Origin: a virus
Lineage: Duplodnaviria; Caudoviricetes
IMG/VR virus record: IMGVR_UViG_3300025133_010191
Coordinates: 1 to 35,142 of that record
DNA: 35,142 bases
Strand: one strand, 5' to 3'
Under the pieces are notes generated by a model. That model searched no databases. It was not told the origin of the DNA and saw only the letters and a list, made by a program, of their open reading frames with translations. Below, in pieces: positions 3,722-31,668 of the stretch. The translations under genes were made by a program, and so were the position numbers. Numbering within the stretch: the first letter of the stretch is position 1; every line of letters begins with the position of its first letter.

Positions 3722-4306
3722 TTATTCATCATCCTCGTCGAGAAGGCCCATACTTTTAAGGTAGTTCCTCACCAGGACATTAACAGGAACCCCAGTGATG
3801 TTAGTGATCCAACTATCCGCTGTGAAGGGCTTATCGAGGTCGAGATTCTTCTCTGTCGCTGGCAGCCAACCAGACGGACGTCTTTTCGCTGCTTCGCGGA
3901 TTAACTCTTTTAGCTGTCCTAGTTTTATCTTCATCTTGCCTTCCTCGAACTTTGTAGGAGCATCCTGCATATCTTGACGCTTCCACTCCCTCTCGGTGGC
4001 GGTGACTTGTCGTTCAATATCACGTTCCCGTTCGGGGGTCTGATGAGACCGATCGTCCCCGGGGGCGTCGCCGAAAACTTGACTGTAGGCTTCATCACCC
4101 TCGGGATCAGGGATGTCCATCTTAAACATCACATCCAGTTTGGACTTTTCGTGCGGGTTGGTTATGATGATGGGGTCATCGTTCTGGAAGTTCCCGCCCT
4201 CTTCCTTGGGTGCACTGATCACCACATCCACAGTCCAAGGCTTGTTCGAGAACTGTGTCAAGCGTTCCCGTATCAGCTGTCTTAGCTGTGCTTCTGTGAG
4301 CTTCAT
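3722..4306 (-). CDS. Leader-motif protein with two copies of the motif
   Basis: N-terminal MKLTEAQLRQLIRERL; internal MKIKLGQLKELIREA from ATG 3934. Confidence 0.8.
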   Translation of the reverse strand: MKLTEAQLRQLIRERLTQFSNKPWTVDVVISAPKEEGGNFQNDDPIIITNPHEKSKLDVMFKMDIPDPEGDEAYSQVFGDAPGDDRSHQTPERERDIERQVTATEREWKRQDMQDAPTKFEEGKMKIKLGQLKELIREAAKRRPSGWLPATEKNLDLDKPFTADSWITNITGVPVNVLVRNYLKSMGLLDEDDE

Positions 4307-4629
4307 CTTCTTTCACTTTTCTTATAGCTTAAGTAATCCATGTCGTCAATGAACTTCTTAATTTCGCCCACTGCCTCGTCTTTACTTTTCCAGACGCGCT
4401 CGCCGAGCCTGTCTCGGATAAAGTCTTTAGTAATCTCCTTGTAGCCATACTCCAGGCCCCGATGGTTTTGATCCAGGTATTCTTCTAACTCGAAGATTGT
4501 TGGGCCGGATCCGTAACCTGATCCTCTCACATTAGATGAAGCATGACCACCCATACTTCCCCCGCCGAAAGTATACTCATTGAGCTCCTCGCGGATGATC
4601 TGTTGTAATCTGGCGCTTGTGATTTTCAT
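4303..4629 (-). CDS. Leader-motif protein
   Basis: MKITSARLQQIIREELNE from ATG 4629, followed by a Gly-rich segment. Confidence 0.8.
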   Translation of the reverse strand: MKITSARLQQIIREELNEYTFGGGSMGGHASSNVRGSGYGSGPTIFELEEYLDQNHRGLEYGYKEITKDFIRDRLGERVWKSKDEAVGEIKKFIDDMDYLSYKKSERR

Positions 4630-4633
4630 GTTA

Positions 4634-5029
4634 TTATCTGTCACCCGCTGCTTGGGCATCTAACTCAACTTCTTCATCGCCCTCGCTGTGGAGTTTTTGT
4701 GCTTCCTCTATGGCGATCAATATCTCTTCTGCTTCAGTTGCACCACCCATCATTCTAAGTGGGCGAGCCAGTCTTTCCATTGCTAGATCAAGAGCATTTG
4801 GGTTTACTTCGTATGCTGCTTCTTTGAATCCATCACTGTCATCGCCATGATTATAATATGCTGAAACAATCTGATCAACTTGTTCCTGCACAGCTGTGCC
4901 AAGTGATGCGTAAGCCTTTGCAAAGTCTATAAGCTCTGAGCCTGTTTCAACTGCCATTCCCCACGATTCATTTATGTGGTTCAATTCTTCCTGAATGATC
5001 TGTTGTAGTTTTCTTTTTGTGATTTTCAT
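4634..5029 (-). CDS. Leader-motif acidic protein
   Basis: MKITKRKLQQIIQEELNHINE; AGGG RBS. Confidence 0.85.
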   Translation of the reverse strand: MKITKRKLQQIIQEELNHINESWGMAVETGSELIDFAKAYASLGTAVQEQVDQIVSAYYNHGDDSDGFKEAAYEVNPNALDLAMERLARPLRMMGGATEAEEILIAIEEAQKLHSEGDEEVELDAQAAGDR

Positions 5030-5039
5030 GTTTTTTCCC

Positions 5040-5615
5040 TTACATTGAGTCCATTATGAAGGCGCGCAGTTGGTCCTCGTCATCGAAGTGCCAGAGCAGC
5101 TCATCCCACTCATCTGCCTGAAAGTGGTGTTGAGCGGAATCCGCAAGGTCGAAAGCAACAACATCTATAGGATATTCTTGATCGCCTGCAGCGTGATCTG
5201 CTTCCCAACCTCTGGCGGCATCATCTGCCCACTTACGAAGGCGTTCTTTTAGGCTGTCGATGTCCAGTCTTTCTTGGTCGGTCTGATCTGCAGCGCGTTG
5301 CTTCTCACGCTCTGGTCTATCATAGACATCATCGATGTGACCCTCAAGCTTTTCGAAATCAGCGCTGCTAAGTTCGATGCTTCGTTCAGTTCCGTCTTTG
5401 TCATCGCCTCGAACGGACAGACTAAGCTTTTCGATAAACTCATCGGCTTTAGCGGCAGGTATGCCTCTTTTAGTTCCCGCGCCGATGTAAAGCACCTCGC
5501 CGGTTTCTACATCAACGATATCAATTGTGTCCAGGTCGTTGTCAGCTTGCTCGCCAAGAACTCGTGTGAGCTCCTCCTGGATGATTTGCTTAAGTTTGCC
5601 TGCTGCGATTTTCAT
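5040..5615 (-). CDS. Leader-motif acidic protein
   Basis: AAGGAG RBS before ATG 5615; MKIAAGKLKQIIQEELTRVLGE. Confidence 0.85.
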   Translation of the reverse strand: MKIAAGKLKQIIQEELTRVLGEQADNDLDTIDIVDVETGEVLYIGAGTKRGIPAAKADEFIEKLSLSVRGDDKDGTERSIELSSADFEKLEGHIDDVYDRPEREKQRAADQTDQERLDIDSLKERLRKWADDAARGWEADHAAGDQEYPIDVVAFDLADSAQHHFQADEWDELLWHFDDEDQLRAFIMDSM

Positions 5616-5625
5616 TTTAATCTCC

Positions 5626-6345
5626 TTATTCGTACCCGAAATCTTTAGCAGTGCCAACGGCACGTGTCATAATAAAATCTTCACTGTATTCTTCGACAGC
5701 GCGTTCAACCCAGCTAGGACGACCACGCTTTGTGTATTGCTCAGGGCCTACCTTAACCATGATGATATCTCTAGCGACTTCCTGTGCAGAGACTTGACCT
5801 TCTGCAGCACTGACTGGGAAATCTTCGAGTGCTTTCGTCATCAATTCGTCAAAATCATCAAGCGCTGATCCTGGGGCTGCTCCGCTGTCAGTTCCTTGTC
5901 GGGAACCTTCCAGTTCAATTTCTCGCACAATATCAGCTATGGATTTTGTCATTGGGACGTTGCGCTCAAGGATATCCTGGACATCTTGTCCGTATTCTTG
6001 CTCGTCTTCCTTGCTTAGCTTCCCAGAAGTATAAGCTTCCAGCCCAAGCATAATGACGTCTAACACTAGTCCCATATTCTCAGATTCAGATTCAGCTTCT
6101 GTTCTTCGATACGATGTTTCAGATAAAGAGCCGAGCTCCTCTTGAATCATTTGTCTAAGCTGTCCTGCTGTGATTTTCATGGTTGATTCTCCAATTTCTA
6201 TTGCGGCGATTTGCCCTTGCATTTTCTTTTTACTTGTATGACAAGCACGGTGCTTCTTGCCTTTTTTATCTGTGTAAGTGAGCACATATTTGCCCAGGTC
6301 GCCGTCTGACTGTTTGCATTTCTGTGTATGCTTCTTGTAGGGCAT
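5626..6345 (-). CDS. Two-part protein: basic N-terminal domain plus internal leader-motif acidic domain
   Basis: GAGG RBS; MPYKK...CHTSKKKMQGQIAAIE, then GGAG and in-frame ATG 6180 MKITAGQLRQMIQEELGSLSE. Confidence 0.8.
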   Translation of the reverse strand: MPYKKHTQKCKQSDGDLGKYVLTYTDKKGKKHRACHTSKKKMQGQIAAIEIGESTMKITAGQLRQMIQEELGSLSETSYRRTEAESESENMGLVLDVIMLGLEAYTSGKLSKEDEQEYGQDVQDILERNVPMTKSIADIVREIELEGSRQGTDSGAAPGSALDDFDELMTKALEDFPVSAAEGQVSAQEVARDIIMVKVGPEQYTKRGRPSWVERAVEEYSEDFIMTRAVGTAKDFGYE

Positions 6346-6363
6346 TGTTAAACCTCGCTGTTC

Positions 6364-6371
6364 ATAAGTAT
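6364..6371 (-). promoter_or_regulatory. ATAnwTAT motif (ATACTTAT)
   Basis: Upstream of the leader-motif operon beginning at 6345. Confidence 0.5.
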
Positions 6372-6461
6372 CATTTTACTGGGATAAATGTTATTGTTTT
6401 TCAAGCCCGTGGCACATGTGAGTGTTTTCTCTTCTTATCGTCAATCGGCACAGACATCTGC

Positions 6462-6974
6462 TTATCGTAATCTCGCACTCCGTCTCCGCCTGGAACCGGT
6501 GTTTGAGCAGCGCCTCTTCGTCCTGTTTGGTGTGGCTTTCAGTCGCTGCGGGTTTGGATCAGACTCCGCCTGCTCGTTTACATTCTCATTTCTTCTCTTG
6601 GAAGGTGTTACATGTCCAGGCAAGCTTTTTCGATGCTTTGGTTCTTTGGCCTTATGGCCTTTAACCTTCTGTCCAAGCTTTGCTAGATTTTTTAATTCTT
6701 TGTTGGTGATCTCGCCGCTATACAAAGCCCATGCTGCTCCACCATAACTCTTTATCTTTCTCTCAGCTGCTTTTCGAGCTTTTCCTCGCTTCATGCGAGC
6801 AGAGTATGCGATTCCAGCAGCCATTTGTTGAGCTTGAGATTCTGTGGATCCTTGCTCCCGGTACGGCGGTGGCCCGTCTGTCTTTGAAGCAGACCGAGTT
6901 GATGACTTTCTTTTCTCTTGAAGTATCAGCTCTTCTCGAATGATAGCTTTAAGCTCAGAGAGTTTAATTTTCAT
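6462..6974 (-). CDS. Leader-motif basic protein with DUF3008-like domain
   Basis: MKIKLSELKAIIREELILQE from ATG 6974; SQAQQMAAGIAYSAR...GAAWALY...KELKNLAK...LPGHV resembles the DUF3008 pattern as recalled. Confidence 0.6.
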   Translation of the reverse strand: MKIKLSELKAIIREELILQEKRKSSTRSASKTDGPPPYREQGSTESQAQQMAAGIAYSARMKRGKARKAAERKIKSYGGAAWALYSGEITNKELKNLAKLGQKVKGHKAKEPKHRKSLPGHVTPSKRRNENVNEQAESDPNPQRLKATPNRTKRRCSNTGSRRRRSARLR

Positions 6975-7010
6975 GGCAGGCCCTTCCCCTTCAATACAAT
7001 CTAACAAACA

Positions 7011-7018
7011 ATAAATAT
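7011..7018 (-). promoter_or_regulatory. ATAnwTAT motif (ATATTTAT)
   Basis: Upstream of ATG 6974. Confidence 0.5.
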
Positions 7019-7050
7019 CACTTATCGCTCATAAAAGATCGTTTGGAGAT

Positions 7051-7227
7051 TTAATCTCTTGTGGCAGGGGCTACCAGCTCTCTGGGCAGCCAAATATTCT
7101 CTTCTTTGATTTGTAGATAATACTTTTCATTCAACGTGTCAAATCCGAGTATTCTAGCATCAGTAGGTTCAAAATTCTCATGAGCAAGGCACTGAACTTT
7201 GGTTCCAAAAGGTAGGGCAGTAGTCAT
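7051..7227 (-). CDS. 58-aa small SH3-like protein (missing from the ORF track)
   Basis: AAGGAG RBS; MTTALPFGTKVQCLAHENFEPTDARILGFDTLNEKYYLQIKEENIWLPRELVAPATRD. Confidence 0.7.
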   Translation of the reverse strand: MTTALPFGTKVQCLAHENFEPTDARILGFDTLNEKYYLQIKEENIWLPRELVAPATRD

Positions 7228-7275
7228 ATATAAACTCCTTAAGAGAAATATACTCTGTTTACCTCAATTGTTAAC

Positions 7276-9177
7276 TTAATCTCCGCCGGATTCGATATCT
7301 ACTGCATGTTCAAAATCTGATTTTTCATCTATAACACCTACTGGGGGTATTTCTTTGTCGCCCTCAAAAACCCATCGGATCTCTTCGGCGTCAATAGTTT
7401 CCTTCTCCATCAAGCTCTCAGTCATGAAATCAATCTTGTCCTTGTGTGTAACTAAAATGTGTTTCGCATCTCTAATACAAAGATCGATGATCTTGCGAAT
7501 CTCATCGTCCAGCTGCTTAGCTGTCTCGTCACTGCACTCACTTCGCCTAGACATTGCCATCTCACGACCCAAGAACACATTCTCATTTCCTGATCCCATA
7601 TAGATGGGTCCAAGAGACGACATGCCGAAATCTCGGACCATGCGTGATGCTATTTGTTTAACTCGCTTTAAGTCATTGGAGACACCTGTGGTTGAGCCTT
7701 TTTCACCGTAATACATGCGCTCAGCCAGATATCCGCCAAGAAGAACTTTAATTCGATCTTCGTATTCCTGCCAAGTTGAAGAGTACTTATCTTCCTCGGG
7801 TAGCTGCATGGTTAATCCGAGCGCTCGGCCGTGAGGAATAATCGTCACTTTGTGAAGAGGATCAGATGACGATGTGTAGTAAGCAACAACCGCATGACCC
7901 GCTTCATGACGAGCAGTAGCAAGCTTTTGCTCTTCAGACATTGCCATAGATTTTCTTGGTGCGCCCATCGTAATCTTGTCTCTTGCTGTTTCAAAATCCT
8001 GCTGGCCGACTCTGTCGGCATCTCGTCGGCCGGCCATAAGTGAGGCCTCATTGATAAGATTTGCTAAGTCAGCTCCTGAAAATCCGGGGGTAGATTTAGC
8101 AACTATCTTTAGATCAACAGCAGGATCAAGAGGCACATCTTTTGCGTGCACATCGAGGATCATTTTGCGACCCTTGATATCGGGTAGAGGTACTACAACT
8201 TGACGATCGAATCGGCCAGGCCGAAGAAGCGCGGGGTCTAAAACATCTGGGCGGTTAGTTGCTGCAAGAACAATAATACCGCTATTATCTTCAAATCCAT
8301 CTAGCTCAACCAGTAACTGATTTAATGTCTGCTCTCGCTCATCATGTCCGCCACCCATGCCGGCGCCTCGTTGTCGACCGACAGCATCGATCTCGTCGAT
8401 GAAAATAATACAAGGTGCATTTGCTTTAGCTTGAGCGAATAAATCTCGAACTCGGCCGGCGCCGACTCCGACAAACATCTCGACAAAATCCGACCCGGAC
8501 ATACTGAAGAAGAATACATTAGCTTCGCCAGCCACAGCTTTTGCAAGAAGTGTCTTTCCTGTGCCTGGGGGGCCCGATAGCAACATGCCGGTGGGCATTT
8601 TACTGCCCAGCTTATAATACTTCTTTGGATTCCGGAGGAAATCGACGACTTCCTCTAAGTCTTCTTTTGCTTCATCGCACCCTGCAACATCTTTAAAAGC
8701 AGTAGTGTTAGATCCTGGAGGGATTATTTTGTGCTTGCTTTTGTTAAAGTCCATTGCTTTGCCCTGGTTCTTTCCCATGCTCTTAATGAACAAAAAGAAG
8801 ACGCCAAAGATGAGAATGAAAGGCAGGATATTGATAATAAGCGCCCAGAACATGTTCGGTCGAACTTGAGGTTTAATTATAAGTCTCAATCCCGGGTGAT
8901 GCTTTTGAGTCAGCTCCAGCAAATTCTCAGTAATGGGACCAACTGTTATCAACACTCTATCTATTTCAGGTTGATTCAATTCCCACTGGTCCCCTTCGAT
9001 CGTGAGAACAGCGGGAGGGTCAGAGTTCTCTGGCAGATCTTGAATAATCTTCACCATCTCTGTATAACTGATCTTTTCTTTTTGTACTTTCACCCCTTGG
9101 GGAAATGAGATCAGCGCAAAAATACACAAAAATGCTGCGAGCCAAATAAGCCAAGTTTTAGATCTAAAAATTTGCAA
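7276..9177 (-). CDS. ftsH: ATP-dependent zinc metalloprotease FtsH
   Basis: Two N-terminal TM segments, Walker A GPPGTGKT, Walker B IIFIDEID, pore motif [30 protein letters not shown] zinc motif. Confidence 0.97.
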
Positions 9178-10445: not shown

Positions 10446-10742
10446 TTAGGATTCTTGCAAGCGCTTATGTGTGTGTTGTTTTCTCAGCGCTAGAATACCT
10501 TGAGTAAGATTTCCGATGAAGATGTGCCCGCAGATAATCCCGAAAGCTAACCAGTCAGCATGGACGGCTAGCATGTAAAGCGCGGCGATGGCACCGGTAC
10601 CAAAGTACCAGAAACAGGCTGGTACATTGATTGCATCAGCAGTTGGTGAATCTACAATTGCTTTGATTACCGGATAGTACCAAAAATAATTTAGCACTTG
10701 AGTCACAACATACAAGCCTATCAAGAACTCAATAGCAGTCAT
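10446..10742 (-). CDS. PQ-loop/SemiSWEET-like three-TM membrane protein
   Basis: Three hydrophobic helices; YPVIKAIVDSPTADAINVPA; paralog of 24870..25148. Confidence 0.55.
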   Translation of the reverse strand: MTAIEFLIGLYVVTQVLNYFWYYPVIKAIVDSPTADAINVPACFWYFGTGAIAALYMLAVHADWLAFGIICGHIFIGNLTQGILALRKQHTHKRLQES

Positions 10743-12168: not shown

Positions 12169-12570
12169 TTATACCTGGGTTTGTAGAGTTTGTTTTATGC
12201 CATCAGTTGCTTTTTCGACCACTTTGGAGGTCAGTTCTAGCTCTTGGCTGAACTTATATACGCCGGCCTGAATTGCTAGCAGTTCAGTAGGATTAAACTG
12301 TTTTCCAGAAGTTGCAAGCTTGATAATCTTGTCTAGCTTTCCTTGTCCGGACATGACGCTAGATAAAACTCTTGTTAGATTTGCATCTTTTGTCTTGTCT
12401 ACCCGGAGCTCCTGCTTGATCTCTGCGGTCTTTTGGGTGGAAGGTATATTATCCATCGATGCCGAAGAGGAAGTTTGTTTCAGAACATCTTGGAAGCTCT
12501 TGGGTGTACTCTGGGCTTTAACTGGTTGATTTGCTGTAGGCAGTTGTATGTTTAACCCTGAAATTTCCAT
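12169..12570 (-). CDS. Type III secretion inner-rod (SctI/YscI/HrpB2)-like protein
   Basis: Low-complexity N-terminus; C-terminal PTELLAIQAGVYKFSQELELTSKVVEKATDGIKQTLQTQV follows the P..L...Q..........EL..K pattern of inner-rod C-termini. Confidence 0.65.
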   Translation of the reverse strand: MEISGLNIQLPTANQPVKAQSTPKSFQDVLKQTSSSASMDNIPSTQKTAEIKQELRVDKTKDANLTRVLSSVMSGQGKLDKIIKLATSGKQFNPTELLAIQAGVYKFSQELELTSKVVEKATDGIKQTLQTQV

Positions 12571-13052
12571 TATCGAACGTTGTTAATTGCGTTCTTCGCA
12601 GTGTCGTGCTTGGTTTTCATCACGTTTGAGATCGTGCTAAATTGCCTGTTCTCACCCTGCATCTTGTTCTGGAGGGTTAGATACTGGAGGTTGAAGCTCA
12701 TCTGCATCTCTTGCATAGCTTTGGTTTGATCCATCAAGGTCTGCGTTGATGATCCGCCGGTTTGACCTGCAGGTGTATTTAAGCTGGGTGATTGACCTGG
12801 AACGTTCATTGTACCATTACCTGCGTAGTTGCCGATTGCTTCAGCTGCTTGACTTACAGTAGCATTGACAACTGATCCCCCTGGAACATAAGGTGCTGCA
12901 ACTCCGACCGCACCTGCTACTACTCCTGCTGCGTTTGATGCGCCCCGGCCGACCATTGCGCCGAAATCGTTTCTTGCAGTTTGGCGAGTGTGCATAGCTT
13001 CTGAGGTTATGCGAATTGAACCGCCGTTATTTAGTCTATTAATACCTGGCAT
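12570..13052 (-). CDS. Type III secretion needle (SctF)-like filament protein
   Basis: C-terminal YLTLQNKMQGENRQFSTISNVMKTKHDTAKNAINNVR matches the SN..K...D.....I.N.R needle C-terminal helix; Ala/Gly-rich hydrophobic segment upstream. Confidence 0.65.
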   Translation of the reverse strand: MPGINRLNNGGSIRITSEAMHTRQTARNDFGAMVGRGASNAAGVVAGAVGVAAPYVPGGSVVNATVSQAAEAIGNYAGNGTMNVPGQSPSLNTPAGQTGGSSTQTLMDQTKAMQEMQMSFNLQYLTLQNKMQGENRQFSTISNVMKTKHDTAKNAINNVR

Positions 13053-13062
13053 TTTATTTTCC

Positions 13063-13881
13063 TTACCGGATGTTTCTAATTGACGTCATGCTCATGTCGT
13101 GCATTGTCTTGAGAACATTAGAGATCAAATCATGCATCTCTTTGCGCTTATTCATAGCTTGCTGAATCTTGAAGTTGATAACTGATCTGCTGTGATCGAC
13201 ATCTCCTGCGGGTTTTCTGCCGAACATCGAACTACCTATGCCGCCGCCGAATGCCGAACCTAACTTTGATCCGATTGGGCCGCCAACTAATCCGCCCAGA
13301 ACTCCGCCGCCGAGCGTGACAGCCTTTGAAGCGAGAGATTTAAAGGCGCTCTTGATGCCGCCGAAGATCCCGCCTTTCTTCTTACTCTTCTTCATGGACT
13401 CATACTTCTTAATCAGCGATTTAAGCTCTTTCTCAGAATCGCGCATTTGTTTGAAGAGGAAAGCTGCCAGCATATCCTCGAAGGATGCTCCTGGGCCGAC
13501 TAGAGAATCCATGTCGCCGCCTTGCTTTTGAATCTGGCCCCTGAGAATGTTTCCGGCTGATGCGCCGCCGGATCTAATCAAGTTCATGATCTCACTGTCC
13601 ATTGCCCGAAGCGCAGATCCTAAGGTTGTACGTGCAGTATTTTGCGAGTAAGTGTGACCGCATTGCCGGCGGGATCTTGCAATTGCTCGGGAAGGCCTGC
13701 TTAAAAACTGCTGTGTGGTTTGACCGGAGAATAAGTCCTTCCAGTTTTGAACTGCCCCTGAGATGTTTAGGGTTGCTAGATCTACTTGGGCTCCTGCAAT
13801 ATCTCCGACTGCATCCGGATAACCGAGTTTGTCTAGTGTTTTGTTGAGCCGAGTTCCGAGCGAATTAATTCCAACTACCAT
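13063..13881 (-). CDS. T3SS needle/tip/translocator-like protein with glycine zipper
   Basis: GGGAGG RBS; coiled coil, amphipathic helix and GxxxG zipper; C-terminal ISNVLKTMHDMSMTSIRNIR paralogous to 12570..13052. Confidence 0.6.
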   Translation of the reverse strand: MVVGINSLGTRLNKTLDKLGYPDAVGDIAGAQVDLATLNISGAVQNWKDLFSGQTTQQFLSRPSRAIARSRRQCGHTYSQNTARTTLGSALRAMDSEIMNLIRSGGASAGNILRGQIQKQGGDMDSLVGPGASFEDMLAAFLFKQMRDSEKELKSLIKKYESMKKSKKKGGIFGGIKSAFKSLASKAVTLGGGVLGGLVGGPIGSKLGSAFGGGIGSSMFGRKPAGDVDHSRSVINFKIQQAMNKRKEMHDLISNVLKTMHDMSMTSIRNIR

Positions 13882-13911
13882 GTTTGAGGACCTCCCGTTT
13901 GTGTATGTCCT

Positions 13912-13919
13912 ATATCTAT
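13912..13919 (-). promoter_or_regulatory. ATAnwTAT motif variant (ATAGATAT)
   Basis: Upstream of the T3SS-like cassette. Confidence 0.35.
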
Positions 13920-13953
13920 TACCGGTAGTTTTACGGAAAAGTTTCCTCTTTTT

Positions 13954-18043: not shown

Positions 18044-18373
18044 TTAGACTCGGCCGTAATTGTCATCCAGACGGACGACGTCGTCTAGTTCGGGAGTAGA
18101 CACCTCTACAATTCGACAATCACTAACTGCAGTCATTCGGTGAACAGTATCTGGCGGGATATGCGCTGCTTCCCCAGGATGCAAAATCTTTTCATCTCCA
18201 TCCTGCTCAAATAGAAGCTCTCCATCTAAGATCAATATCGTCTCATCCTTCTCAATATGAAACTGCCTAGAAAGAGCGTGTCCTTCTTTGATAACAAGGA
18301 TTTTTCCAACGTACTTATCTGTGTGCGCCCATAAGACTTCATGTCCCCAAGGCTTTTCAATTACATTACTCAT
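18044..18373 (-). CDS. Cupin domain protein (mannose-6-phosphate isomerase-like)
   Basis: MSNVIEKPWGHE...LSRQFHIEKDET...HIPPDTVHRM...EVSTPELDDVVRLDDNYGR. Confidence 0.88.
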   Translation of the reverse strand: MSNVIEKPWGHEVLWAHTDKYVGKILVIKEGHALSRQFHIEKDETILILDGELLFEQDGDEKILHPGEAAHIPPDTVHRMTAVSDCRIVEVSTPELDDVVRLDDNYGRV

Positions 18374-18998
18374 GCTCTTCATCTTTTTCATCTTTTGATT
18401 TAGAAGTCCACGTTCCAGTCTCATTACCTTCAGCCGCCCATCCTGGTCGGTCAGTGCGAGAGTAAAGTTCGAGATAGGGCCCGGCTGATCTTTTTTCCAC
18501 GAAGTCGTAAAACTCTTCCGGTTTTCGTGAATGTTCACGGCGTGGTGCGAAAATATAGTCCCTCGAGGTGCATAAACCTCTGCCGTTTACTACATTTTCA
18601 GGATCATCAGTACCGCTGTAACGTGTATTCTTTCCCATTCCCTTGTCATACCTGACTGCAAAGATACACATTTCAGTATATCTCATTCCGTATGGAGTGG
18701 GGCTGCCTACATTGCTCTTCACCCACGGGATGAGTGTAATCGGAGTGAAACCCAGGCGCTCAATAACTTCTATTGCCGGGATGATACCTTGATCTTTTCC
18801 TGCAGTAAATGAATTAACTGCCCACATATACATGTGTGCCTCAGGGGCAACGCCGTATTCATTAAACCAGCTGTTCAAAGTAGTAACGATCGACTCTTTG
18901 GATTGCACATTATAGTGAGTAGAGGGTTGCAAAGATTTATGCCCTACGCCCCCAGTGCTTTTCTTCCAGGGAGGATCGATCATTACCGTTTTGAACAT
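18366..18998 (-). CDS. MT-A70 family adenine methyltransferase
   Basis: DPPW catalytic motif, HSRKPEEFY, YLELYSR...GW...GNE. Confidence 0.9.
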   Translation of the reverse strand: MFKTVMIDPPWKKSTGGVGHKSLQPSTHYNVQSKESIVTTLNSWFNEYGVAPEAHMYMWAVNSFTAGKDQGIIPAIEVIERLGFTPITLIPWVKSNVGSPTPYGMRYTEMCIFAVRYDKGMGKNTRYSGTDDPENVVNGRGLCTSRDYIFAPRREHSRKPEEFYDFVEKRSAGPYLELYSRTDRPGWAAEGNETGTWTSKSKDEKDEEHE

Positions 18999-19005
18999 TT
19001 GATTC

Positions 19006-19437
19006 CTACTGCTGAATTTCTACAAGTTCAATCTCAAAATTAAGGTCCTTACCTGCCATCGGGTGATTGAAGTCAACATTAACTGCTTCTTCCTTCACTT
19101 CGTTGATGGTTCCTATGACTGGCCCGTTTGGACCGAAGCCCTGGATCATGGCACCTTCGACATACTCAAAGTCATCTGGAAAATTATCCTTTGAGATATC
19201 AACAACTGCTTCGGTGTTAATAGGGCCGTAAGCCTCTTCTGGAGTCAAAGTAATATTCTTTGTCTCTCCCGTAGTCATACCCACAACTGCAGTATCAAAT
19301 CCTGGAATCATTTGCCCAGATCCAACTTCGAAAGTTAGGGTTTCATTACGACTATGCGAGCTATCAAACTCGGTTCCGTCGTTAAGGGTGCCACGATAGT
19401 GGACACTGATTGTATTGCCATTCTCTACTGTGCTCAT
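19006..19437 (-). CDS. FKBP-type peptidyl-prolyl isomerase (SlyD/SlpA-like)
   Basis: AAGGAG RBS before MSTVENG; VHYRGTLNDGTEFDSS, GQMIPGFD, PEEAYG, VDFNHPMAGKDLNFEIEL. Confidence 0.93.
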   Translation of the reverse strand: MSTVENGNTISVHYRGTLNDGTEFDSSHSRNETLTFEVGSGQMIPGFDTAVVGMTTGETKNITLTPEEAYGPINTEAVVDISKDNFPDDFEYVEGAMIQGFGPNGPVIGTINEVKEEAVNVDFNHPMAGKDLNFEIELVEIQQ

Positions 19438-19447
19438 TTTATTCTCC

Positions 19448-19630
19448 TTATAAGTCCATGTGCAGTGTAGTTGTTTCATCAGGACTTTCGGAATCTCGAT
19501 ATCCTGTTTGCGATTTTGTGAATCGATCAGCTGTCATATGACGAAGTTGATCTTTTAGTTCTTTGTTCTCTTTTTGCAGCTTATTAATGATATCTTGAAG
19601 ATGTTTTTCTCTGTTTGTGGCTTTTGTCAT
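19448..19630 (-). CDS. Small coiled-coil hypothetical protein
   Basis: LQDIINKLQKENKELKDQL; abuts the ligase stop. Confidence 0.6.
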   Translation of the reverse strand: MTKATNREKHLQDIINKLQKENKELKDQLRHMTADRFTKSQTGYRDSESPDETTTLHMDL

Positions 19631-20914
19631 TTAACAAGTTCGCTCATCGCCATGAATCACTTTTACCACTGGAAACCTTAGACTAAAGGTTCCTTCCTGG
19701 TTTTGGCTCTCTTCAAAGTACTGCACGGTAATAACTTTGTTCAAGATATCTTGTGGGTTTTTAAAGAAATGTTTTCGTTCCTCGATCGTAAATCCAGATC
19801 CGACACCTACATCATTCTTCTTATGTACGATCACAACGTTAGAAAGCATCTCTTCTTCCACTTCGCGCCCTTCGACTACGTAGCGGAACGGCCCAAAGGA
19901 CACATCCTTCACGCGATACTCTGCATCGTGCATGGTTTTAACCTTCAGGATGTCCTTTGACCGCTTGCCCTTATATGTGGTATCAAGCCGGAGCATCAAA
20001 CCTTCCCAGCCAGCATTCTGGGCTTCCTGGCGCCACTTCTCAAAGTCCTCGATACCTGCAACCCTCTGCTGGTGGAGAACGCTGAGGTGCTTTGCTTTAA
20101 ACGGGACAGTGTCTCGAAGGCGACTAAGACGCGTGAGGAACCCATCTTCAGACGTACCAGACTGGAAGTCGGAGAGATCGATCATATCAAAGATCTGGAA
20201 CAGGCCATTCTCGACGGTGTGATCCTTGCGACGGATTTCCTTCATCATGCTCTGGAAATCCTCATCTCCGTTCTCGTCGACTAGGCACATCTCGCCGTCA
20301 AAGACAACGTTGGTCACACCGAGTGCTTCGATCTCTTCTTCTACTTTCCTCAAAGTTTGGAACTGTTTTCCAGATCGCGCCCATGACGAGGCGTGGCCGT
20401 TCTCATCTACCATCACCAGACATCTAACGCCGTCTAGTTTCCGAGATACCACCCAAACCTGATTTTCGAAATCAACTTTCTTAGCAGTCTTCTCATCATA
20501 CGAGTTTGCCAATGCTACGTCGAACGTGGGAATGAGATTATCACACGCTCGATTAATAAGCTTCTCTGACGCTCTGATTTTTAAGCTTCTGTCTAGGATT
20601 AAAGTTAGTACTTCTTTCCACTCTCCGTTTTCACGCAGGAAGGAATTTGTTTGGGACAGGGCTTTGTGGCCTGTAATCTCTCGCGCGTTTAGGGCGTCGA
20701 GCAAGTCAAAAACTGTGTCATAATCACATGTATCATCACAGAGATCAGACCTCTTTTGAAGGTTCTTGACTCCGACGTGATACTGCAAGTAAGGATTGTA
20801 CGTATAGTAGAGTGTCTTTCGGATTAGATCGTCGGCATTCTCGAGCAGTTGAACCTTATCTAAGACTGAGGACGTTGCTTGCATCTCATCAAGAAAAGTG
20901 TGTAGGTTTTTCAT
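19631..20914 (-). CDS. ATP-dependent DNA ligase
   Basis: Motif I SRKLDGVR, VFDGE, FQIFD, WEGLMLR, KVK, VGSGFT, SLRFPV; ATG 20914 overlaps the upstream TGA. Confidence 0.95.
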   Translation of the reverse strand: MKNLHTFLDEMQATSSVLDKVQLLENADDLIRKTLYYTYNPYLQYHVGVKNLQKRSDLCDDTCDYDTVFDLLDALNAREITGHKALSQTNSFLRENGEWKEVLTLILDRSLKIRASEKLINRACDNLIPTFDVALANSYDEKTAKKVDFENQVWVVSRKLDGVRCLVMVDENGHASSWARSGKQFQTLRKVEEEIEALGVTNVVFDGEMCLVDENGDEDFQSMMKEIRRKDHTVENGLFQIFDMIDLSDFQSGTSEDGFLTRLSRLRDTVPFKAKHLSVLHQQRVAGIEDFEKWRQEAQNAGWEGLMLRLDTTYKGKRSKDILKVKTMHDAEYRVKDVSFGPFRYVVEGREVEEEMLSNVVIVHKKNDVGVGSGFTIEERKHFFKNPQDILNKVITVQYFEESQNQEGTFSLRFPVVKVIHGDERTC

Positions 20915-21444
20915 CAGTGGGTGTGACCTTTCCACAGATTCGTACGATATTTACATACAAACTGGACTGGATCTAGGTGGTCATCTTTAAGGTTTCCCTT
21001 ATTCCGATATACTTCTAAGTGAAGATGGGACCCTAAGGCTTTTCCAGTGGATCCGACTTCCCCGAGGAGTGTTCCTGCCTTTACTGTCTGCCCCTTCTTT
21101 ACAAGAATCTTGGACATATGCGAGTACTTAAACTTCAAGCCACTGGGTGATCGAACCATTACCTGCAGGCCGCCTCCGGCGGAGGATTGGCGGGCGTAGT
21201 AGACGTAACCCTCGGTGATACTTCGAATAGAAACACCTTCATCAGATTCAATATCAATTCCGTAGTGAAACTTCTTGCCGGGCCCGAAAGGATTATCCCT
21301 CATTCCGTAATGTGAGGTAATTCGGCCAAACCGGTAATCGATGGGAAGCTTGCAATCTGGGCCTCTATCAGAGACAACGTCTACAGATTCCATAGCAACA
21401 ACATTTGATGGTGCTGACAGTACTAGCAAAGCAATGAGAACCAT
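20914..21444 (-). CDS. Secreted M23 family peptidase
   Basis: Signal peptide; ITSHYG.R, HYGID (HxxxD), YSHM, GSTG, HLHLEV. Confidence 0.93.
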   Translation of the reverse strand: MVLIALLVLSAPSNVVAMESVDVVSDRGPDCKLPIDYRFGRITSHYGMRDNPFGPGKKFHYGIDIESDEGVSIRSITEGYVYYARQSSAGGGLQVMVRSPSGLKFKYSHMSKILVKKGQTVKAGTLLGEVGSTGKALGSHLHLEVYRNKGNLKDDHLDPVQFVCKYRTNLWKGHTH

Positions 21445-22433: not shown

Positions 22434-24692
22434 TTAATTGTCTAAAGTAAATACTTCCACCTCTTGAGTCCATGCGCGGCGATGGTGAGAAGATATCTCT
22501 TCAAGATCCCACTGCCCGAAATCAAAACCTGGAAGCAAAGCTGTTGTCATACGATATAAGAATGCCCCTGAACCGGGGTGATCAATCTCGGATTCGAGAT
22601 CATTCTGTGGGAAGTAGGGTAGTTTGAATTTAGTCAAGTGTCCTGGGACAAACACATGCCACTGGTTACCGGTGCTTGCTTCTGCAAGTGTAAACATATA
22701 CAGCGACGGCTGCGGGCTGATTGGTTGTGTTCTCCACTGCATCATGCGATTTCTTAAGAAGCTTCCTCGTGTTGGCTGATTCATGCTGGGAAACTGCATC
22801 ATCTGCCCTAGCATAACTCCTCCGCTTATATCGTCTGGTCCGGATCTAATAATTGCACTATACGGCTCATTATAACTGTAGCTTCCATGACAAGATAAAC
22901 CCCTGCTGCCCTCCCGACAAGTTTGACCTCGTTGACAGTCGGTATGCATACGACAAGAAACTACATTGTCATAGTCTGGATCCCAGGCTCTTGTATACGT
23001 TCCTGCATAAAACGTGAGCATTTGCCCCGGTACTGACGGTATGCTTTCAACTACGACATGCGTGCGGGCTGCTGTCTTGGTGCTCAAGTGATACACTCCC
23101 TCACCTCCAAAATCTAAGAAAGTAGAAACTTTGGAATGCGTTGGCCCTTCTCGGGTGCCGGCATAGAAAGGAGCTTCGGGCAATGTGATAACTGTAGAGT
23201 TTTCCAAGTCGTATTCTAAATTAATTACAATGTCGCTTACAGTCTCACCAAACACAGCATTAATTCCTCGTCGGATTCCCATTTGACGCACAGAGGTTAT
23301 CTCTTGAGTTCTAACATTTATTACTCCGGTAAAAGCAACCAGGGCGAACCTTCCTGGAATAGTGATGAAATCGAATGGCGCATTATCTTCAAAGATAGTA
23401 TCGTTGCCAAAGATGACAATGCAGTTTCCGCTTGAGAACCAAGTGCAGGGTCTTCCGCCTTGCGGAACAGGTTGCTCCCACGCAGTTGCCTTGGGTGTTT
23501 TTCTGCTAAAGATATTCTTCTGGGTGAGGTCGATGAATCCAAATGCACGCTCGTAAGGTCCGAGAGTGTTTGGATCGAATAGTGCCTTCGAGAATCCAGT
23601 GACCACACCTCTTATTCTAGGGAATACAACAGGAGGCTGGGAGGGTGGTGCGCCGGAAGAGGGGGGTGAAGGAAAAGAGCAGTTTAGGTAAACTGTAAGG
23701 TCTTCGGAAGGCACCTCAACATAAGTCTCTGTGTCACAATATCTTGCTGCAATAGTCACTGTTTGGGCGCCGTAGACGCTAGGGCCACTCAGCGTTGCTA
23801 GCCCAAGCTGGTTTGTCTTTTTAGCGTATCGGGGTTCTTGTTCTACGCCCAACCAAACCAAGGAGTCTGCCAGCGGTATTCTTTCCCCCTGAATTATTGT
23901 CAGGACTTTTACATTAAACGATCCCGACACATTGTTGCCATGCACACCGCCAGTAATGAAGGCTGGGTCATAATACTCAAACCCTCCTCGAATATCTGTA
24001 GTACTACCATTAGAATCTATAGAAACGTCTACATATCCTGTCAATCCTTGCGGAGTATAGACGTTCAAAGTGTTTTCATCTGGTGCATCCTCGACAATGC
24101 CGGGCATTCCACCAAACATAACTGAAGCTGTCTCGCTGCCAATACCCACAGAAACTAAAGTAACATATGTACCACCCGCAATTGATCCTCGGTTTGGGTG
24201 TACTTGCGGTGCATTCTCATCCACGTATTCAAAATCAGACGACGTTGATACTCCTAGGCTGTTCTGCACTCTAATCTCAGCAGGCCCTGGTGTACCCGGA
24301 GGTAATCGGAAAGTAATTACGCGCTGGTTTACGCTGAACACATCCTCAGCAGCTTGTCCTGACACTGTTACTGTGGTATCTGGCATGAACCCATAGCCCC
24401 GGAGTCGGACACGCGGGCCTCCCAAAACAGGACCGGTTGGTGGTGTGATCTCCTGGATATGCACTGCAGGACCAGAATCATAAGCTTGAGGTTGGCGGGA
24501 TGGACCTGCATCTCGAGGAGGTGGAGCAGAAGTTCTTCCTGCATCATACTTGAGATTAATTATGGGTCCCACGTCATGAGGCGGTGATTCTATTTGCTCA
24601 ATACACGCAGCTAAAAACCCTAGCAGAGCGATATTAAAAATCTGTAAAGTTAGCTTCTTCAAACTCGATCGCATTCTTCTCATCGAGAACAT
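22434..24692 (-). CDS. IPT/TIG-repeat lipoprotein, myxobacterial type
   Basis: Lipobox LAAC, DAG/Pro-rich linker, two IPT/TIG repeats (ITPPTGPVLGG..V.LRG.GF; VHPNRGSIAGGT.VTL), Cys-rich insert. True start probably slightly downstream of 24692. Confidence 0.8.
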   Translation of the reverse strand: MFSMRRMRSSLKKLTLQIFNIALLGFLAACIEQIESPPHDVGPIINLKYDAGRTSAPPPRDAGPSRQPQAYDSGPAVHIQEITPPTGPVLGGPRVRLRGYGFMPDTTVTVSGQAAEDVFSVNQRVITFRLPPGTPGPAEIRVQNSLGVSTSSDFEYVDENAPQVHPNRGSIAGGTYVTLVSVGIGSETASVMFGGMPGIVEDAPDENTLNVYTPQGLTGYVDVSIDSNGSTTDIRGGFEYYDPAFITGGVHGNNVSGSFNVKVLTIIQGERIPLADSLVWLGVEQEPRYAKKTNQLGLATLSGPSVYGAQTVTIAARYCDTETYVEVPSEDLTVYLNCSFPSPPSSGAPPSQPPVVFPRIRGVVTGFSKALFDPNTLGPYERAFGFIDLTQKNIFSRKTPKATAWEQPVPQGGRPCTWFSSGNCIVIFGNDTIFEDNAPFDFITIPGRFALVAFTGVINVRTQEITSVRQMGIRRGINAVFGETVSDIVINLEYDLENSTVITLPEAPFYAGTREGPTHSKVSTFLDFGGEGVYHLSTKTAARTHVVVESIPSVPGQMLTFYAGTYTRAWDPDYDNVVSCRMHTDCQRGQTCREGSRGLSCHGSYSYNEPYSAIIRSGPDDISGGVMLGQMMQFPSMNQPTRGSFLRNRMMQWRTQPISPQPSLYMFTLAEASTGNQWHVFVPGHLTKFKLPYFPQNDLESEIDHPGSGAFLYRMTTALLPGFDFGQWDLEEISSHHRRAWTQEVEVFTLDN

Positions 24693-24795
24693 CCTTAACC
24701 AAGCTCCTGATTATTTTAGGTAATCGATGCTTGAGTTCTAATTCTACTGCTTCTCGAATCATGTGTTCAATCTTAGGTGATAGAATAATTTTCAT
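24634..24795 (-). CDS. 53-aa helical protein (missing from the ORF track)
   Basis: AGGGG RBS; MKIILSPKIEHMIREAVELELKHRLPKIIRSLVKDVLDEKNAIEFEEANFTDF. Confidence 0.6.
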   Translation of the reverse strand: MKIILSPKIEHMIREAVELELKHRLPKIIRSLVKDVLDEKNAIEFEEANFTDF

Positions 24796-24869
24796 GTCAT
24801 TCCCCTGCTCTTTTCACACATAAGCCTGTTATTAGTTTATGCTACACTGGGATTTATCAAAAGCAAAGA

Positions 24870-25148
24870 TTACTTCTTTAGTTTTTTCTGCTTGCCGTGT
24901 GCGAGATATAAAATAACAGCATTGCCTACAAAATAAGACGTAACAACTGCGCCCAAGACGGCATCCTCAACGACTAACAGCGTGTAAAGAACTGATGCAA
25001 ATGCGCTCATCGTAAAGACGCAGTATGCCGGCACAGAAATTGCGTCAGCAGTTTCTGACTTGGCTACGGCTTTAACTTGATGAATAAACAGGAGTATTGC
25101 CAAAGCCTGTGTTGCAATATAAAAACAAGTAAGAAGCGTATCTATCAA
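24870..25148 (-). CDS. PQ-loop/SemiSWEET-like three-TM membrane protein
   Basis: IHQVKAVAKSETADAISVPA, three TM helices, GN in the last helix. Confidence 0.6.
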   Translation of the reverse strand: MIDTLLTCFYIATQALAILLFIHQVKAVAKSETADAISVPAYCVFTMSAFASVLYTLLVVEDAVLGAVVTSYFVGNAVILYLAHGKQKKLKK

Positions 25149-25609
25149 TTTACTAACTCCGCTCGAACTTTATATTTGATATCTGGGACCTTAGTAGTGA
25201 GATATCCTACAGACTTAAAGACATCGCCTTTGACCAAATGCGGTACTTCGACCGGAATACCTGAGCCTGTAATGGCGCGCCCGTAAACGAGAAGATCTCC
25301 GTCAGTAACCACGTATCGATCAGGCTGGAAGTCAACTCGATCGGTCTTATATCCAGTCTTGAATAGCTCGTCGTAAAGCTCTTGCCCGGACCAGTTAGAA
25401 GTAATCATGATCTTAACAGGTACTTCAGGATACCTTGCCACAGATCCCACGCGGACTTGTGGGATATTTGTGTTAGCATTCTTATAATCTACCCCAAGCT
25501 TGAACATTCGACCGAATCCGCCCAGTGTGGAAGCGAAGCGTCGAGTGCCGTATATAGAGAGTTGCTCACGAATTAGTTTTCGGAGTTTTTTCTCTTGGTC
25601 AGTGTTCAT
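25145..25609 (-). CDS. Leader-motif hypothetical protein
   Basis: EKKLRKLIREQL near the N-terminus. Confidence 0.75.
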   Translation of the reverse strand: MNTDQEKKLRKLIREQLSIYGTRRFASTLGGFGRMFKLGVDYKNANTNIPQVRVGSVARYPEVPVKIMITSNWSGQELYDELFKTGYKTDRVDFQPDRYVVTDGDLLVYGRAITGSGIPVEVPHLVKGDVFKSVGYLTTKVPDIKYKVRAELVN

Positions 25610-27027
25610 ACTGTTGCAGTGTTAGAATAAGCGCTGTTATAAGCATTGATGTTTTTTGTAACGTGGGCAATATAGTCTGGATTTTTTTTACCGTAATATT
25701 TGCCGACCCACCCTGCTGTATTACCCGACTTCATTAATTTAGCAGCATCTGGATTTCTTGCAATCCAAGCCTTGAACGCTGTTTTAGAATGTTCTTCTGG
25801 ATTGACCCGCCACGCAGACATGAATTTCTTTGGGTCTCTGCCATAATCTTGAAGAGAAGATTCGCCTAAGACTTGATATAACCCCCAGGCTCCCCCAGAG
25901 ATTGCTGCTACTGGATCAACTTTGTAAGCCTTATTAAATTGCTTCTTCGCGTTGTCGCCGTAATAAGATTTTCCTGCCGGAAGTTTGCCGGGTATTTCAG
26001 AATGCTTTCTTGCGATGTGTGCATTCCATGCGAAGGCTTTGGGATTGCCTGCTGATTCCCTTTTCTCAATTGCATAGATCACTGCAGCTGGAACGCCTGT
26101 TGAGGCGGCAAGTTCTTGTGCTCGACCTGCAGATGTGTGACTTACATCGACTGCGGAAACCAGATCTCCGGTGGCGGCATCAATATCGCTGACTTTAATG
26201 AGTGTTTTTTCAATATTCTTTGGAATGTCAGCTGTCACAGCAGCTTTTATCTCTGCATCCTTCTCCAGAAATTTATCCCATGTTTCTGACGTTGTGGTTC
26301 CCGTAACTTTTATCTTATTATCTTTTTGAAACTTTTTAATAGCATCCTCAGTCTTTTGATCGAACATGCCGTCAACATCGACTTTATACCCAAGTGAATC
26401 TAGACCTTGCTCAAGAACTTTGATAACCTTTAAATAGATCGATGTTTGCCCAGAAGGGGTTTTAGCATACACGTCTCTTTTGGATGCAATCTCAGATTTT
26501 GCACCTGGCGATATCGCTTCCTGGATTGATTGCCGGGTTACTTCTTTTATTTTTGCTAAAGTTATTGGACCCTCAAGATCTTCAAGGCGATAGTAGACGT
26601 CTTCCAAGACCAGATTCTGGAATTGCTTTCTGACCTCGTATACGTCATCATTTTCTCTGTTCATCGCGAACCCCTTGATTAGAGATCCGGCGCGGGCATT
26701 AGCGTCATCTTCCAAGTATCCTCCGACATGTTGCATGGGATGCTCATCAAACTCACCCTTGTCATCTTGCTTGGCATGTACTAATTCATGTGCAATAGAT
26801 CGCAGAACATCAGGAACCGCACGATCCTTGCCGTAGATCTTAATGATCTTGTTGATCGGATCATAAAAAGCTGTAGTTTGTATTTCATGCGCGGCACGGT
26901 CATCAACAATGTAGATATCGTAGTCAGACTCAATGCCCAAACTCTTGCAGCAATGATCGACGAAAACCTGGACCAGAGCCTGCTTTGATTCTATTCGGGG
27001 AAGCTCCCCCTCGAGATACAAGGCCAT
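25606..27027 (-). CDS. Multidomain protein: zincin-like HExxH, PG-binding and N-acetylmuramidase (DUF3380-like) domains
   Basis: DVLRSIAHELVHAKQ...EDDANARAG; LDSLGYKVDVDGMFDQKTEDAIKKFQKDNKIKVTG; AIEKRESAG...GAWGLYQVLG. Confidence 0.8.
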   Translation of the reverse strand: MALYLEGELPRIESKQALVQVFVDHCCKSLGIESDYDIYIVDDRAAHEIQTTAFYDPINKIIKIYGKDRAVPDVLRSIAHELVHAKQDDKGEFDEHPMQHVGGYLEDDANARAGSLIKGFAMNRENDDVYEVRKQFQNLVLEDVYYRLEDLEGPITLAKIKEVTRQSIQEAISPGAKSEIASKRDVYAKTPSGQTSIYLKVIKVLEQGLDSLGYKVDVDGMFDQKTEDAIKKFQKDNKIKVTGTTTSETWDKFLEKDAEIKAAVTADIPKNIEKTLIKVSDIDAATGDLVSAVDVSHTSAGRAQELAASTGVPAAVIYAIEKRESAGNPKAFAWNAHIARKHSEIPGKLPAGKSYYGDNAKKQFNKAYKVDPVAAISGGAWGLYQVLGESSLQDYGRDPKKFMSAWRVNPEEHSKTAFKAWIARNPDAAKLMKSGNTAGWVGKYYGKKNPDYIAHVTKNINAYNSAYSNTATV

Positions 27028-31235: not shown

Positions 31236-31668
31236 GTTTATCATTCTGGGGGCGCTTTTAGTCGCCACAGGATTAACTTATTACCTCGTCAATATCACTC
31301 CTGATCTGGTCTTTAAAAAAGACACAATTTATTACATGCCCGGCAAAAATAACGATTGCACTTGGCACGTATATTTTGAAAATAATGTCTATCTCAAAAG
31401 AGGCTCTTTTTCTAATATATTCATTGGCCTGCCTAACCGAGAACAAAACGGAGCTATCAAAGGTATTGTAGAATCAACAGCTACTGACCTTCTTTTAGCT
31501 TTTTCTTTTCCAGGAAACATCAGGCAGGCGCCGATTGTTCTGACAGCAAGGCACAATCAGATCACTGCACCGATTGATCACGTTAGATTTAGATTGTTTA
31601 ATAGCACCCTTTTAACCATCTTAATTTTCAAAGATCATAAATCCTGTATTTCGAGGAGTTCGAAATGA
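31210..31668 (+). CDS. Membrane-anchored beta-rich hypothetical protein
   Basis: N-terminal TM helix, two Cys; overlaps both neighbours. Confidence 0.7.
   Translation: MVKIGEKTRFIILGALLVATGLTYYLVNITPDLVFKKDTIYYMPGKNNDCTWHVYFENNVYLKRGSFSNIFIGLPNREQNGAIKGIVESTATDLLLAFSFPGNIRQAPIVLTARHNQITAPIDHVRFRLFNSTLLTILIFKDHKSCISRSSK

Follow-up and report, generated by a model that had tools for sequence, protein, structure and literature searches.

The three-gene cassette and its viral carriers

The window analysed here is the entire 35,142-b virus record IMGVR_UViG_3300025133_010191 of IMG/VR, which matches a portion of a 48.7-kb IMG/VR contig at 100% identity, and it carries a cassette of three genes whose products resemble secreted and axial proteins of a T3SS (type III secretion system). 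An initial annotation of the sequence had read the cassette as a phage-borne T3SS needle and inner-rod set; the three open reading frames (ORFs) of 272, 160 and 133 amino acids (aa) and the C-termini that it quoted are present as described, all on the minus strand. The features of the cassette are the following:

13919..13945, minus strand: predicted promoter motif of the sigma-28 type, GAAAC-N15-CCGGTAA in the phage and (G/A)CAAC-N16-17-CGATA(A/C) in the host form
13891..13896, minus strand: ribosome binding site GGGAGG, read from the sequence
13063..13881, minus strand: 272-aa translocator-like (SctB-type) protein with a coiled coil at about residues 134-164, a Gly-rich apolar segment at about 176-225 and an SctF-like C-terminal helix
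12570..13052, minus strand: 160-aa SctF-like, putative needle subunit with an N-terminal extension and an Ala/Gly-rich helix pair at residues 30-74
12169..12570, minus strand: 133-aa SctI-like, putative inner-rod subunit (host forms, 150-190 aa)

A gap of 72 nt lies 5' of the 272-aa gene, 10 nt separate it from the 160-aa gene, which overlaps the 133-aa gene by 1 nt, and small K/P-GDLV genes are found on both sides of the cassette. The upstream gap and strong ribosome binding site originally described are there in the form of the 72 nt and GGGAGG, with the qualification that a clear GGAGG site precedes the first gene only; likewise, the tails of the 272- and 160-aa proteins, said to end in the same 20 residues, are alike with only 11 of 20 positions identical (14 of the last 45). 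Neither a sigma-70 promoter nor a terminator stood out above chance.

That the cassette belongs to a phage was borne out: the sequence is a virus record, its relatives include 236-kb and 174-kb viral records encoding a T4-like gp23 capsid, and basal-body genes are lacking, so that a bacterial contig was ruled out. In the window's 48.7-kb record and four relatives (completeness 15-70% for four of these five records and 96% for one), scans which had the complete Myxococcaceae-family genome G048 or control genomes as positives found SctJ, SctV, the T3SS ATPase (SctN) and a secretin in none of the five, which extends to these records the reported lack of an export apparatus in the window. The cognate tetratricopeptide repeat (TPR) protein had no match in the same records, in a chaperone scan run without positive control. 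Judged by gene content, none of these viral records contains a complete non-flagellar T3SS. Matches to FliA were restricted to 31-42 residues of region 4, and a phage-encoded FliA was dropped as a candidate; no tyrosine integrase was detected in any of the five records.

Within IMG/VR the 133-aa gene was found in six contigs and the 272-aa gene in five, amounting to four distinct three-gene viral cassettes (the window, L087, L003/L004 and L005) and one two-gene form (L090). The genes flanking the cassette differ between phages, and its position among small non-structural genes varies. The two-gene form (L090:9974-10835, in the 174-kb, 96% complete record G547) has the needle and rod genes and the same upstream motif without the 272-aa gene, while in L003 a 320-aa Cys-rich gene, endonuclease-like by eye, lies at 6544-7506 between the 272- and 160-aa genes and leaves both unbroken. 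No match to the 160- and 133-aa proteins was found among 50,697 GenBank phages, nor did the cassette proteins match any PHROG. Among 43 metagenome loci, 24 (a number that includes the window's own record and many near-copies) have a full-length short form of the 272-aa gene (269-275 aa); the 160-aa gene follows in 23 of these and the rod gene in 18, the remainder ending at a contig edge. Nine loci have a long form (364-369 aa, GC 0.54-0.63) after which the needle gene does not follow, most of these contigs being short. In four marine runs the stretch is represented by short contig pieces. Comparison with L087 gave dN/dS values of 0.055, 0.067 and 0.097 for the three genes, with dS near saturation; by this measure they are intact and under purifying selection.

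Identity of the 160-aa protein

Relatives of the 160-aa protein number 526, and the best 80 of 323 genome stretches encoding one were used. When a profile of the C-terminal tail (35 rows) was aligned by hhalign to a profile of 17 fetched SctF needles of 71-112 aa, a probability of 92.8% (E 3.9e-7) was obtained over 45 ungapped co-terminal columns. The score was reached by none of 60 column shuffles and none of 60 block shuffles, and the reversed profile failed too; it should be noted that one block shuffle still gave a probability of 84%. The tail scored 0.2% against the SctI profile and 22.9% against a clean set of flagellar axial proteins (25 rows), and a flagellar origin from a Flg_bbr_C D0 tail was ruled out on the latter value, as compared with 92.8% for SctF; in G048 the needle-like gene is present twice and Flg_bbr_C is absent. 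Against the PDB, the sole match of the tail profile was a 43-aa needle fragment that differs little from the SctF in L150 and belongs to an entry of a needle with its chaperone (E 0.47); full-length profiles gave nothing useful. An Atlas search with the 160-aa protein placed PF09392 in the top named clusters (score 0.89), which we take as a lead only, and a needle copy of G048 matched TIGR02105 below the cut-off (E 0.02).

A TPR protein of the marine locus L007 modelled with the tail of its own needle-like protein scored 0.71, against 0.02 for the best of three controls, the control not being another TPR protein. The predicted contact is made through the last 25 residues, with at least 85% of contacts agreeing between runs and a partner predicted local distance difference test (pLDDT) value of at least 61; the mark used for the complex score is reached by 116 of 157 solved and two of 215 mismatched pairs. 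Because similar complexes have already been solved, the model speaks for likeness to them. The monomer model consists of one helix (residues 102-159) at a mean pLDDT of 53, and with this low-confidence model Foldseek found no fold match to solved needles and VIA only generic helices (best Z 6.4). The helical hairpin proposed as a structural test was consequently not recovered, the low-confidence models giving a single long C-terminal helix. The reading as SctF-like is supported by the tail profile and by the position of the host genes in the sctF slot, described below.

The protein also has a Gly/Ala-rich apolar segment (KD19 1.56) and a faint match to microcin V (E 0.066); this match and those to SrfA and Arg_decarb_HB were taken as chance helices. 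Further SctF-like tails are found in myxobacteria, often beside TPR genes (L091, L092, L095, L096, L098-L100) and including proteins of 300-550 aa, and two identical 74-aa genes with such a tail lie in the long cluster of G048 (L134:5252-5476 and 7667-7891). Possibly the proteins with SctF-like tails belong to one family, whose members could stand in for each other as tip or filament subunits. A C-terminal helix similar to the tail of the 160- and 272-aa proteins is present on many unrelated myxobacterial proteins.

Identity of the 133-aa and 272-aa proteins

The 133-aa protein matches SctI families below their cut-offs (PF17001, E 0.0048; NF038054, E 0.0059), as do host rod copies with TIGR02497 (18.7 bits, cut-off 23.45). 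Its profile gave 8.8% against the SctI profile over 63 columns extending to the C-terminus, exceeding 120 of 120 shuffles, and its top match in the PDB was MxiI (E 0.26). The host rod gene lies immediately before sctJ in L034, L047, L057 and both G048 clusters; in L006, L007, L009 and L010 it lies apart from sctJ, and SctJ is encoded elsewhere in those genomes. These matches, weak and consistent, together with the gene position directly before sctJ in hosts, agree with the SctI-like identity first assigned to it. Residues 91-133 are almost invariant across 70 sequences, and a hypervariable rod was ruled out by a mean identity of 93% among 69; the phage rod is 30-50 aa shorter than the host form. 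Most relatives of the protein carry a precomputed match to PF09392, and two host rods (P0242 and P0252) are annotated as 'ATP-dependent helicase HrpB', their name having been confused with that of HrpB2, the T3SS rod.

That the 272-aa protein is a second needle is disfavoured by its host neighbourhood and its coiled coil. The host counterpart follows, in two pairs of loci (L093/L137 and L094/L136), an SctU-like gene, a small gene and an LcrH/SycD-like TPR gene (TPR E 6.6e-11), and alignment of residues 127-164 to the coiled coil in seven translocators of the SseD family gave a probability of 42% (E 2.6e-4, 38 columns; shuffle maximum 8.7%). The SseD family itself is matched at E 0.51 by the phage form and 0.0053 by the host form, short of the cut-off, and the tail scores 76% with SctF and 0.5% with SseD. 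A single IpaC/SipC-family sequence gave no match (0.6%), the Gly-rich apolar stretch is modest (KD19 1.26), and the monomer model has a pLDDT of 43. With moderate confidence, we interpret the protein from these comparisons as a translocator-like (SctB-type) predicted T3SS substrate with an SctF-like tail. The host form measures 364-376 aa, and about 95 aa of it are missing from all 24 full-length phage-type copies. No SctE partner was found in the phage.

Host loci and origin of the genes

The Myxococcota T3SS has been described as lacking needle, translocon and secretin, as far as the accessible text of the reports goes (PMC3459982, PMC10433427, PMC12075869, PMC10196010); the same texts distinguish in Myxococcus xanthus the clusters T3SS* (MXAN_2434-2464) and T3SS(2) (MXAN_5643-5654), and long and short Myxo non-flagellar T3SS (NF-T3SS). 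Neither 'sctF' nor 'sctI' occurs as a term in the supplements of PMC12075869. The cassette genes have their cellular homologs in T3SS* loci, in keeping with the link to T3SS genes near sctJ that had been anticipated. The Myxococcota gene order is a gene of about 110 aa, the needle-like gene, a TPR gene, a gene of about 127 aa, a FliA-like sigma gene and the rod gene, followed in L034 by SctJ (2e-22), FliG-like, SctL, SctN and SctO; 58 loci are listed with both needle and TPR genes. This is the order yscE-F-G-H-I-J-K-L with a sigma gene inserted. The TPR protein beside the needle matches CdsG (E 8.5e-7) and SctY below their cut-offs, and the small gene upstream of the host needle had no YscE match. 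A conserved 125-160-aa gene with a low-complexity N-terminus and no family match lies between the TPR and sigma genes (L009:2318-2698 and homologs), a position which suggests YscH or a FlgM-like anti-sigma factor.

In a Myxococcaceae-family sample, 57 of 61 genomes (one of the 57 unpublished) match the 160-aa family, most of them twice. In G048 one needle copy heads the long cluster and another directly precedes sctI-sctJ in the short cluster, and no secretin was found in either. Such an arrangement suggests that the host 'needleless' cluster itself holds an overlooked needle-like gene, and from its position the ortholog of the 160-aa protein would be MXAN_2434. The deletion in the published delta-T3SS* strain spans mxan_2438-2451 only.

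Trees were computed for the rod (43 rows) and, as a quick tree, for the needle (78 rows), leaving out duplicates, stand-alone non-myxobacterial rows and one frameshifted locus. Four phage copies group with the loci L006, L007 and L009 of marine metagenome-assembled genomes (support 92/97 and 94), as expected for the myxobacterial source that had been suggested. The needle of L090 nests in the Myxococcaceae long-locus clade and a single viral clade is rejected (p-AU 3.5e-7, 24 chosen rows); on this phylogeny a second phage lineage captured needle, rod and motif independently. The cassette was not captured as one block: the host 272-aa form lies at another locus, so the phage has joined genes from two host loci. 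The chaperone and sigma genes that lie between host needle and rod are absent from the cassette, which is in composition a selected set of three host genes. We hold the identity and origin of the cassette genes to be highly probable. Several Myxococcota genomes (G002, G004, G005, G006 and G549) contain flagellar genes (FliF, Flg_bbr_C) and a separate SctJ, and RcpC (Tad) was present in six of seven Myxococcota genomes tested.

Predicted promoter motif

Comparison of five phage upstream regions revealed two boxes 15 nt apart, a motif which we take to resemble the sigma-28 consensus. In the five viral records (568,726 b) it has six matches, five of them at the cassettes (5/5), and none with a reversed control; with a tighter pattern nothing but the cassette site is matched in the 48.7-kb record. 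The first pattern also has two looser hits, at 10667-10693 and 8177-8203 (-), both of which lie inside ORFs and are gone with the tighter pattern. The phage-derived pattern occurs in 23 of 72 needle upstream regions as compared with 21 of 5,000 random windows. A relaxed pattern, tuned after the host data had been seen, is found 59-65 nt before the start in all 24 full-length short-form loci and at 55 of 59 needle genes in host long loci, as compared with 125 of 10,000 windows drawn at random. With an intermediate pattern a site precedes the host rod gene in 11 of 28 cases, the 365-376-aa gene in both host loci (L093 and L094), the TPR gene in one of 66, and none of 30 sigma genes or nine short-locus needles. 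All three captured host genes are thus, on the evidence of this pattern, predicted members of one motif regulon with 12-36 sites per genome.

The sigma factor of the host cluster is closest to FliA/WhiG (TIGR02479, E 1e-47, under the cut-off). Two boxes, fixed spacing and distance, enrichment and the presence of a FliA-type sigma are the features of a sigma-28 (FliA/WhiG) promoter, and control of the cassette by a host sigma factor is, on this basis, probable. An ATA(C/T)TTAT-like element, seen by eye before several other window genes, is distinct from the cassette motif. The pattern RCAAC-N16-17-CGATAM has 26, 24, 36 and 12 sites in G004, G005, G006 and G048 (5, 0, 4 and 6 in reversed controls), and on the listed flagellar contigs it occurs only on contig C48 of G005, at least 84 kb from flgC. 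Many genes downstream of the motif encode N-termini rich in Ser, Pro, Asn and Thr, by eye like those of T3SS substrates (L210-L239), and would make up a candidate list of T3SS* effectors.

Other genes of the window

Genes sharing the N-terminal motif 'MKIT..L.QII.EEL', also common in related phages, lie at 3722-7007 and 25145-25609. The regions 7276-9177, 18366-21444, 22434-27027 and 31665-32906 encode an FtsH-like protease, a methyltransferase, an FKBP-like protein, an ATP-dependent ligase, an M23 peptidase and peptidoglycan-binding proteins, as well as two further proteins, one of 752 aa and one of 413 aa with GIDNDC repeats, host-derived in appearance.

Discussion

The comparisons made here document the capture of host genes, the selection acting on them, a shared regulon motif and the lack of basal-body genes in the records searched. 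For their function we propose that a large marine phage of T4-like type carries, in shortened form, three host T3SS* genes for predicted secreted products, that the cassette motif is read as a promoter by the FliA-like sigma of the host cluster, and that the products would be exported through the host T3SS* with the help of host chaperones and then assembled. Consumable T3SS* parts would in this way be resupplied during infection, and prey lysis and nutrient uptake could persist as host genes are being shut down by the phage. Cyanophage psbA follows the same logic, a phage copy keeping a host machine going during infection. We put resupply at somewhat less than an even chance, and favour it over its rivals because three intact consumable parts have been kept with near-invariant assembly helices.

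Phage subunits might instead co-assemble with those of the host and alter or block a T3SS* surface structure, either to exclude superinfecting phages or to stop secretion and save resources. Such jamming or remodelling would account for the roughly 95 aa of the host translocator-like protein missing from every one of the 24 phage-type copies, for the shortened rod (by 30-50 aa) and for the chaperones not being carried, and expression timed to host substrates would suit a poison subunit equally well. We regard it as possible and somewhat doubtful, given that one truncated subunit would suffice, yet three full assembly-competent parts are under purifying selection, that there is no hypervariability, and that for FRphi, the flagellar analogue, exclusion of superinfecting phages was ruled out in the part of that report available (PMC13418256). 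A regulatory use, in which extra rod and needle would shift the substrate switch or titrate chaperones and so change sigma activity or effector release with no lasting structure, draws on the needle and rod being common to both captures (L090 has just these two), on the FliA-like sigma in the host cluster, and on Salmonella, where rod dosage alters needle length and switching; it leaves the third gene unexplained, the small neighbour gene has no anti-sigma match, and we consider it unlikely.

The helix shared by the 160- and 272-aa proteins could also be a general export or oligomerization tag on membrane-active T3SS* substrates, such as toxins or pore parts, which would not be filament subunits. 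The Gly/Ala-rich apolar segments of both proteins (KD19 1.56 and 1.26), the faint microcin V match, the similar helix on many unrelated myxobacterial proteins, stand-alone copies outside T3SS hosts and the printed description of the system as needleless, in the text available (PMC3459982, PMC10433427, PMC12075869), would all be in line with this. Synteny in the sctF slot of both long and short clusters, a profile match specific for SctF and modelled chaperone binding through the last 25 residues make it quite unlikely. Helical, polymer-type proteins in a phage might finally be repurposed virion or DNA-ejection parts, a highly improbable origin for genes which have a host-type motif upstream, unlike the ATA(C/T)TTAT-like element of other window genes, a variable location among small non-structural genes and no PHROG match.

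A number of observations weigh against the resupply of needle, rod and translocator parts. The SctF cut-offs are not reached by the 160-aa protein (none of 50 full-length members matches PF09392 at E<=1), and PF09392 is matched by 11 of 35 tails (best E 0.0015), the same number as by an unrelated helical family. Neither a PxxP before the last helix nor a hairpin in the model was found, so that the protein is by these comparisons SctF-like and not a proven needle. The same 45-residue tail ends stand-alone proteins of Bacteroidota, Acidobacteriota and Verrucomicrobiae (L052, L058, L062, L065-L068, L070, L072-L074, L077, L080, L081 and L083), many with signal-peptide-like starts, which have no T3SS neighbours and no motif (0/28); SctJ/FliF is absent from four of the five genomes tested. 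The rod profile scores 13.9% with SctF, its SctI match being weak and no better than this, and the fixed 95-aa deletion in the translocator-like protein fits remodelling as well as resupply. The after-the-fact tuning of the relaxed motif belongs here as well, as does the finding that the nearest hosts are also flagellated and that a flagellar sigma could read the motif; since the motif occurs in G048, where flagellar axial genes are missing, the T3SS* sigma is favoured as its reader. The carrier host is likely a Myxococcota predator, to judge from gene trees only.

How T3SS* delivers its cargo without needle, translocon and secretin is an open question in the text of the published work at hand (PMC10433427, PMC12075869), and the loss of SctF in Myxo systems belongs to the standard account of injectisome evolution, again as far as that text goes (PMC3459982). 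A broader version of the resupply reading is that T3SS* is not needleless, an extended SctF and a translocator-like protein being exported by it under the control of a dedicated sigma-28 factor, and that lytic marine phages have twice captured the genes of these consumable parts. As 'auxiliary predation genes' they would let an infected predator go on with prey lysis and so sustain the replication of the phage; we advance this version, from sequence comparison, as a speculative possibility. The choice of three genes made by the phage points to candidates, including one gene to delete in a tractable non-pathogen, with its chaperone, sigma and motif, and the promoter motif also lists 12-36 candidate substrate genes per genome. 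The cassette, if this is true, is a route for marine viruses to act on bacterial predation.

Comparison with known systems

The phage genes are homologous to genes in both cluster types of G048, and SctI is named for the T3SS* cluster in the published text available; that text has no SctF or translocon, whereas in G048 the long cluster begins with an SctF-like gene and the short one has such a gene ahead of sctI, and the phage holds three predicted substrates only, with no basal body. The 160-aa protein shares with SctF needles (PF09392, TIGR02105; YscE/YscG-type chaperones) a co-terminal helix at the C-terminus in which Q, S-N, K, D, I, N and R are conserved, a host gene with a small gene upstream and a TPR gene downstream, and a tail modelled in the TPR groove. 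It differs in being about twice as long, with an N-terminal extension bearing an Ala/Gly helix pair, in having no PxxP turn, and in scoring below the cut-off. With SctB minor translocators (SseD, YopD, SipC/IpaC; LcrH/SycD chaperones) the 272-aa protein has in common a coiled coil, an apolar segment, a terminal helix and a host form directly after an LcrH/SycD-like TPR gene; it differs in the mere 38 aligned columns, the SctF-like tail and the lack of an IpaC/SipC match.

A literature search, with subscription papers mostly outside it, returned nothing on an SctF of myxobacteria or on needle or rod genes carried by phages, and an earlier mention is possible; 'T3SS' and 'needle' are absent from the main text, as available, of a 2026 myxophage survey. 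In cyanophages, psbA and psbD likewise provide a host machine with its high-turnover parts and nothing else; the cassette would differ from them, by analogy, in concerning secretion and predation instead of photosynthesis, its benefit being a proposed one. The closest parallel is FRphi, whose FliCp with TldR likewise represents an exported structural subunit supplied by a phage that relies on the host export apparatus, and which is, in the portion of the report available, a temperate phage acting on the flagellum with one subunit and RNA-guided repression of the host gene (PMC13418256). The cassette differs from it in belonging to a T4-like phage without detected integrase, in addressing a non-flagellar T3SS, in comprising three subunits from two loci, and in having no adjacent repressor and a retained host promoter motif. 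It would be a variant of the phage-supplied host-machine subunit and, within these searches, the first set of structural parts from a non-flagellar T3SS to be seen in a phage.

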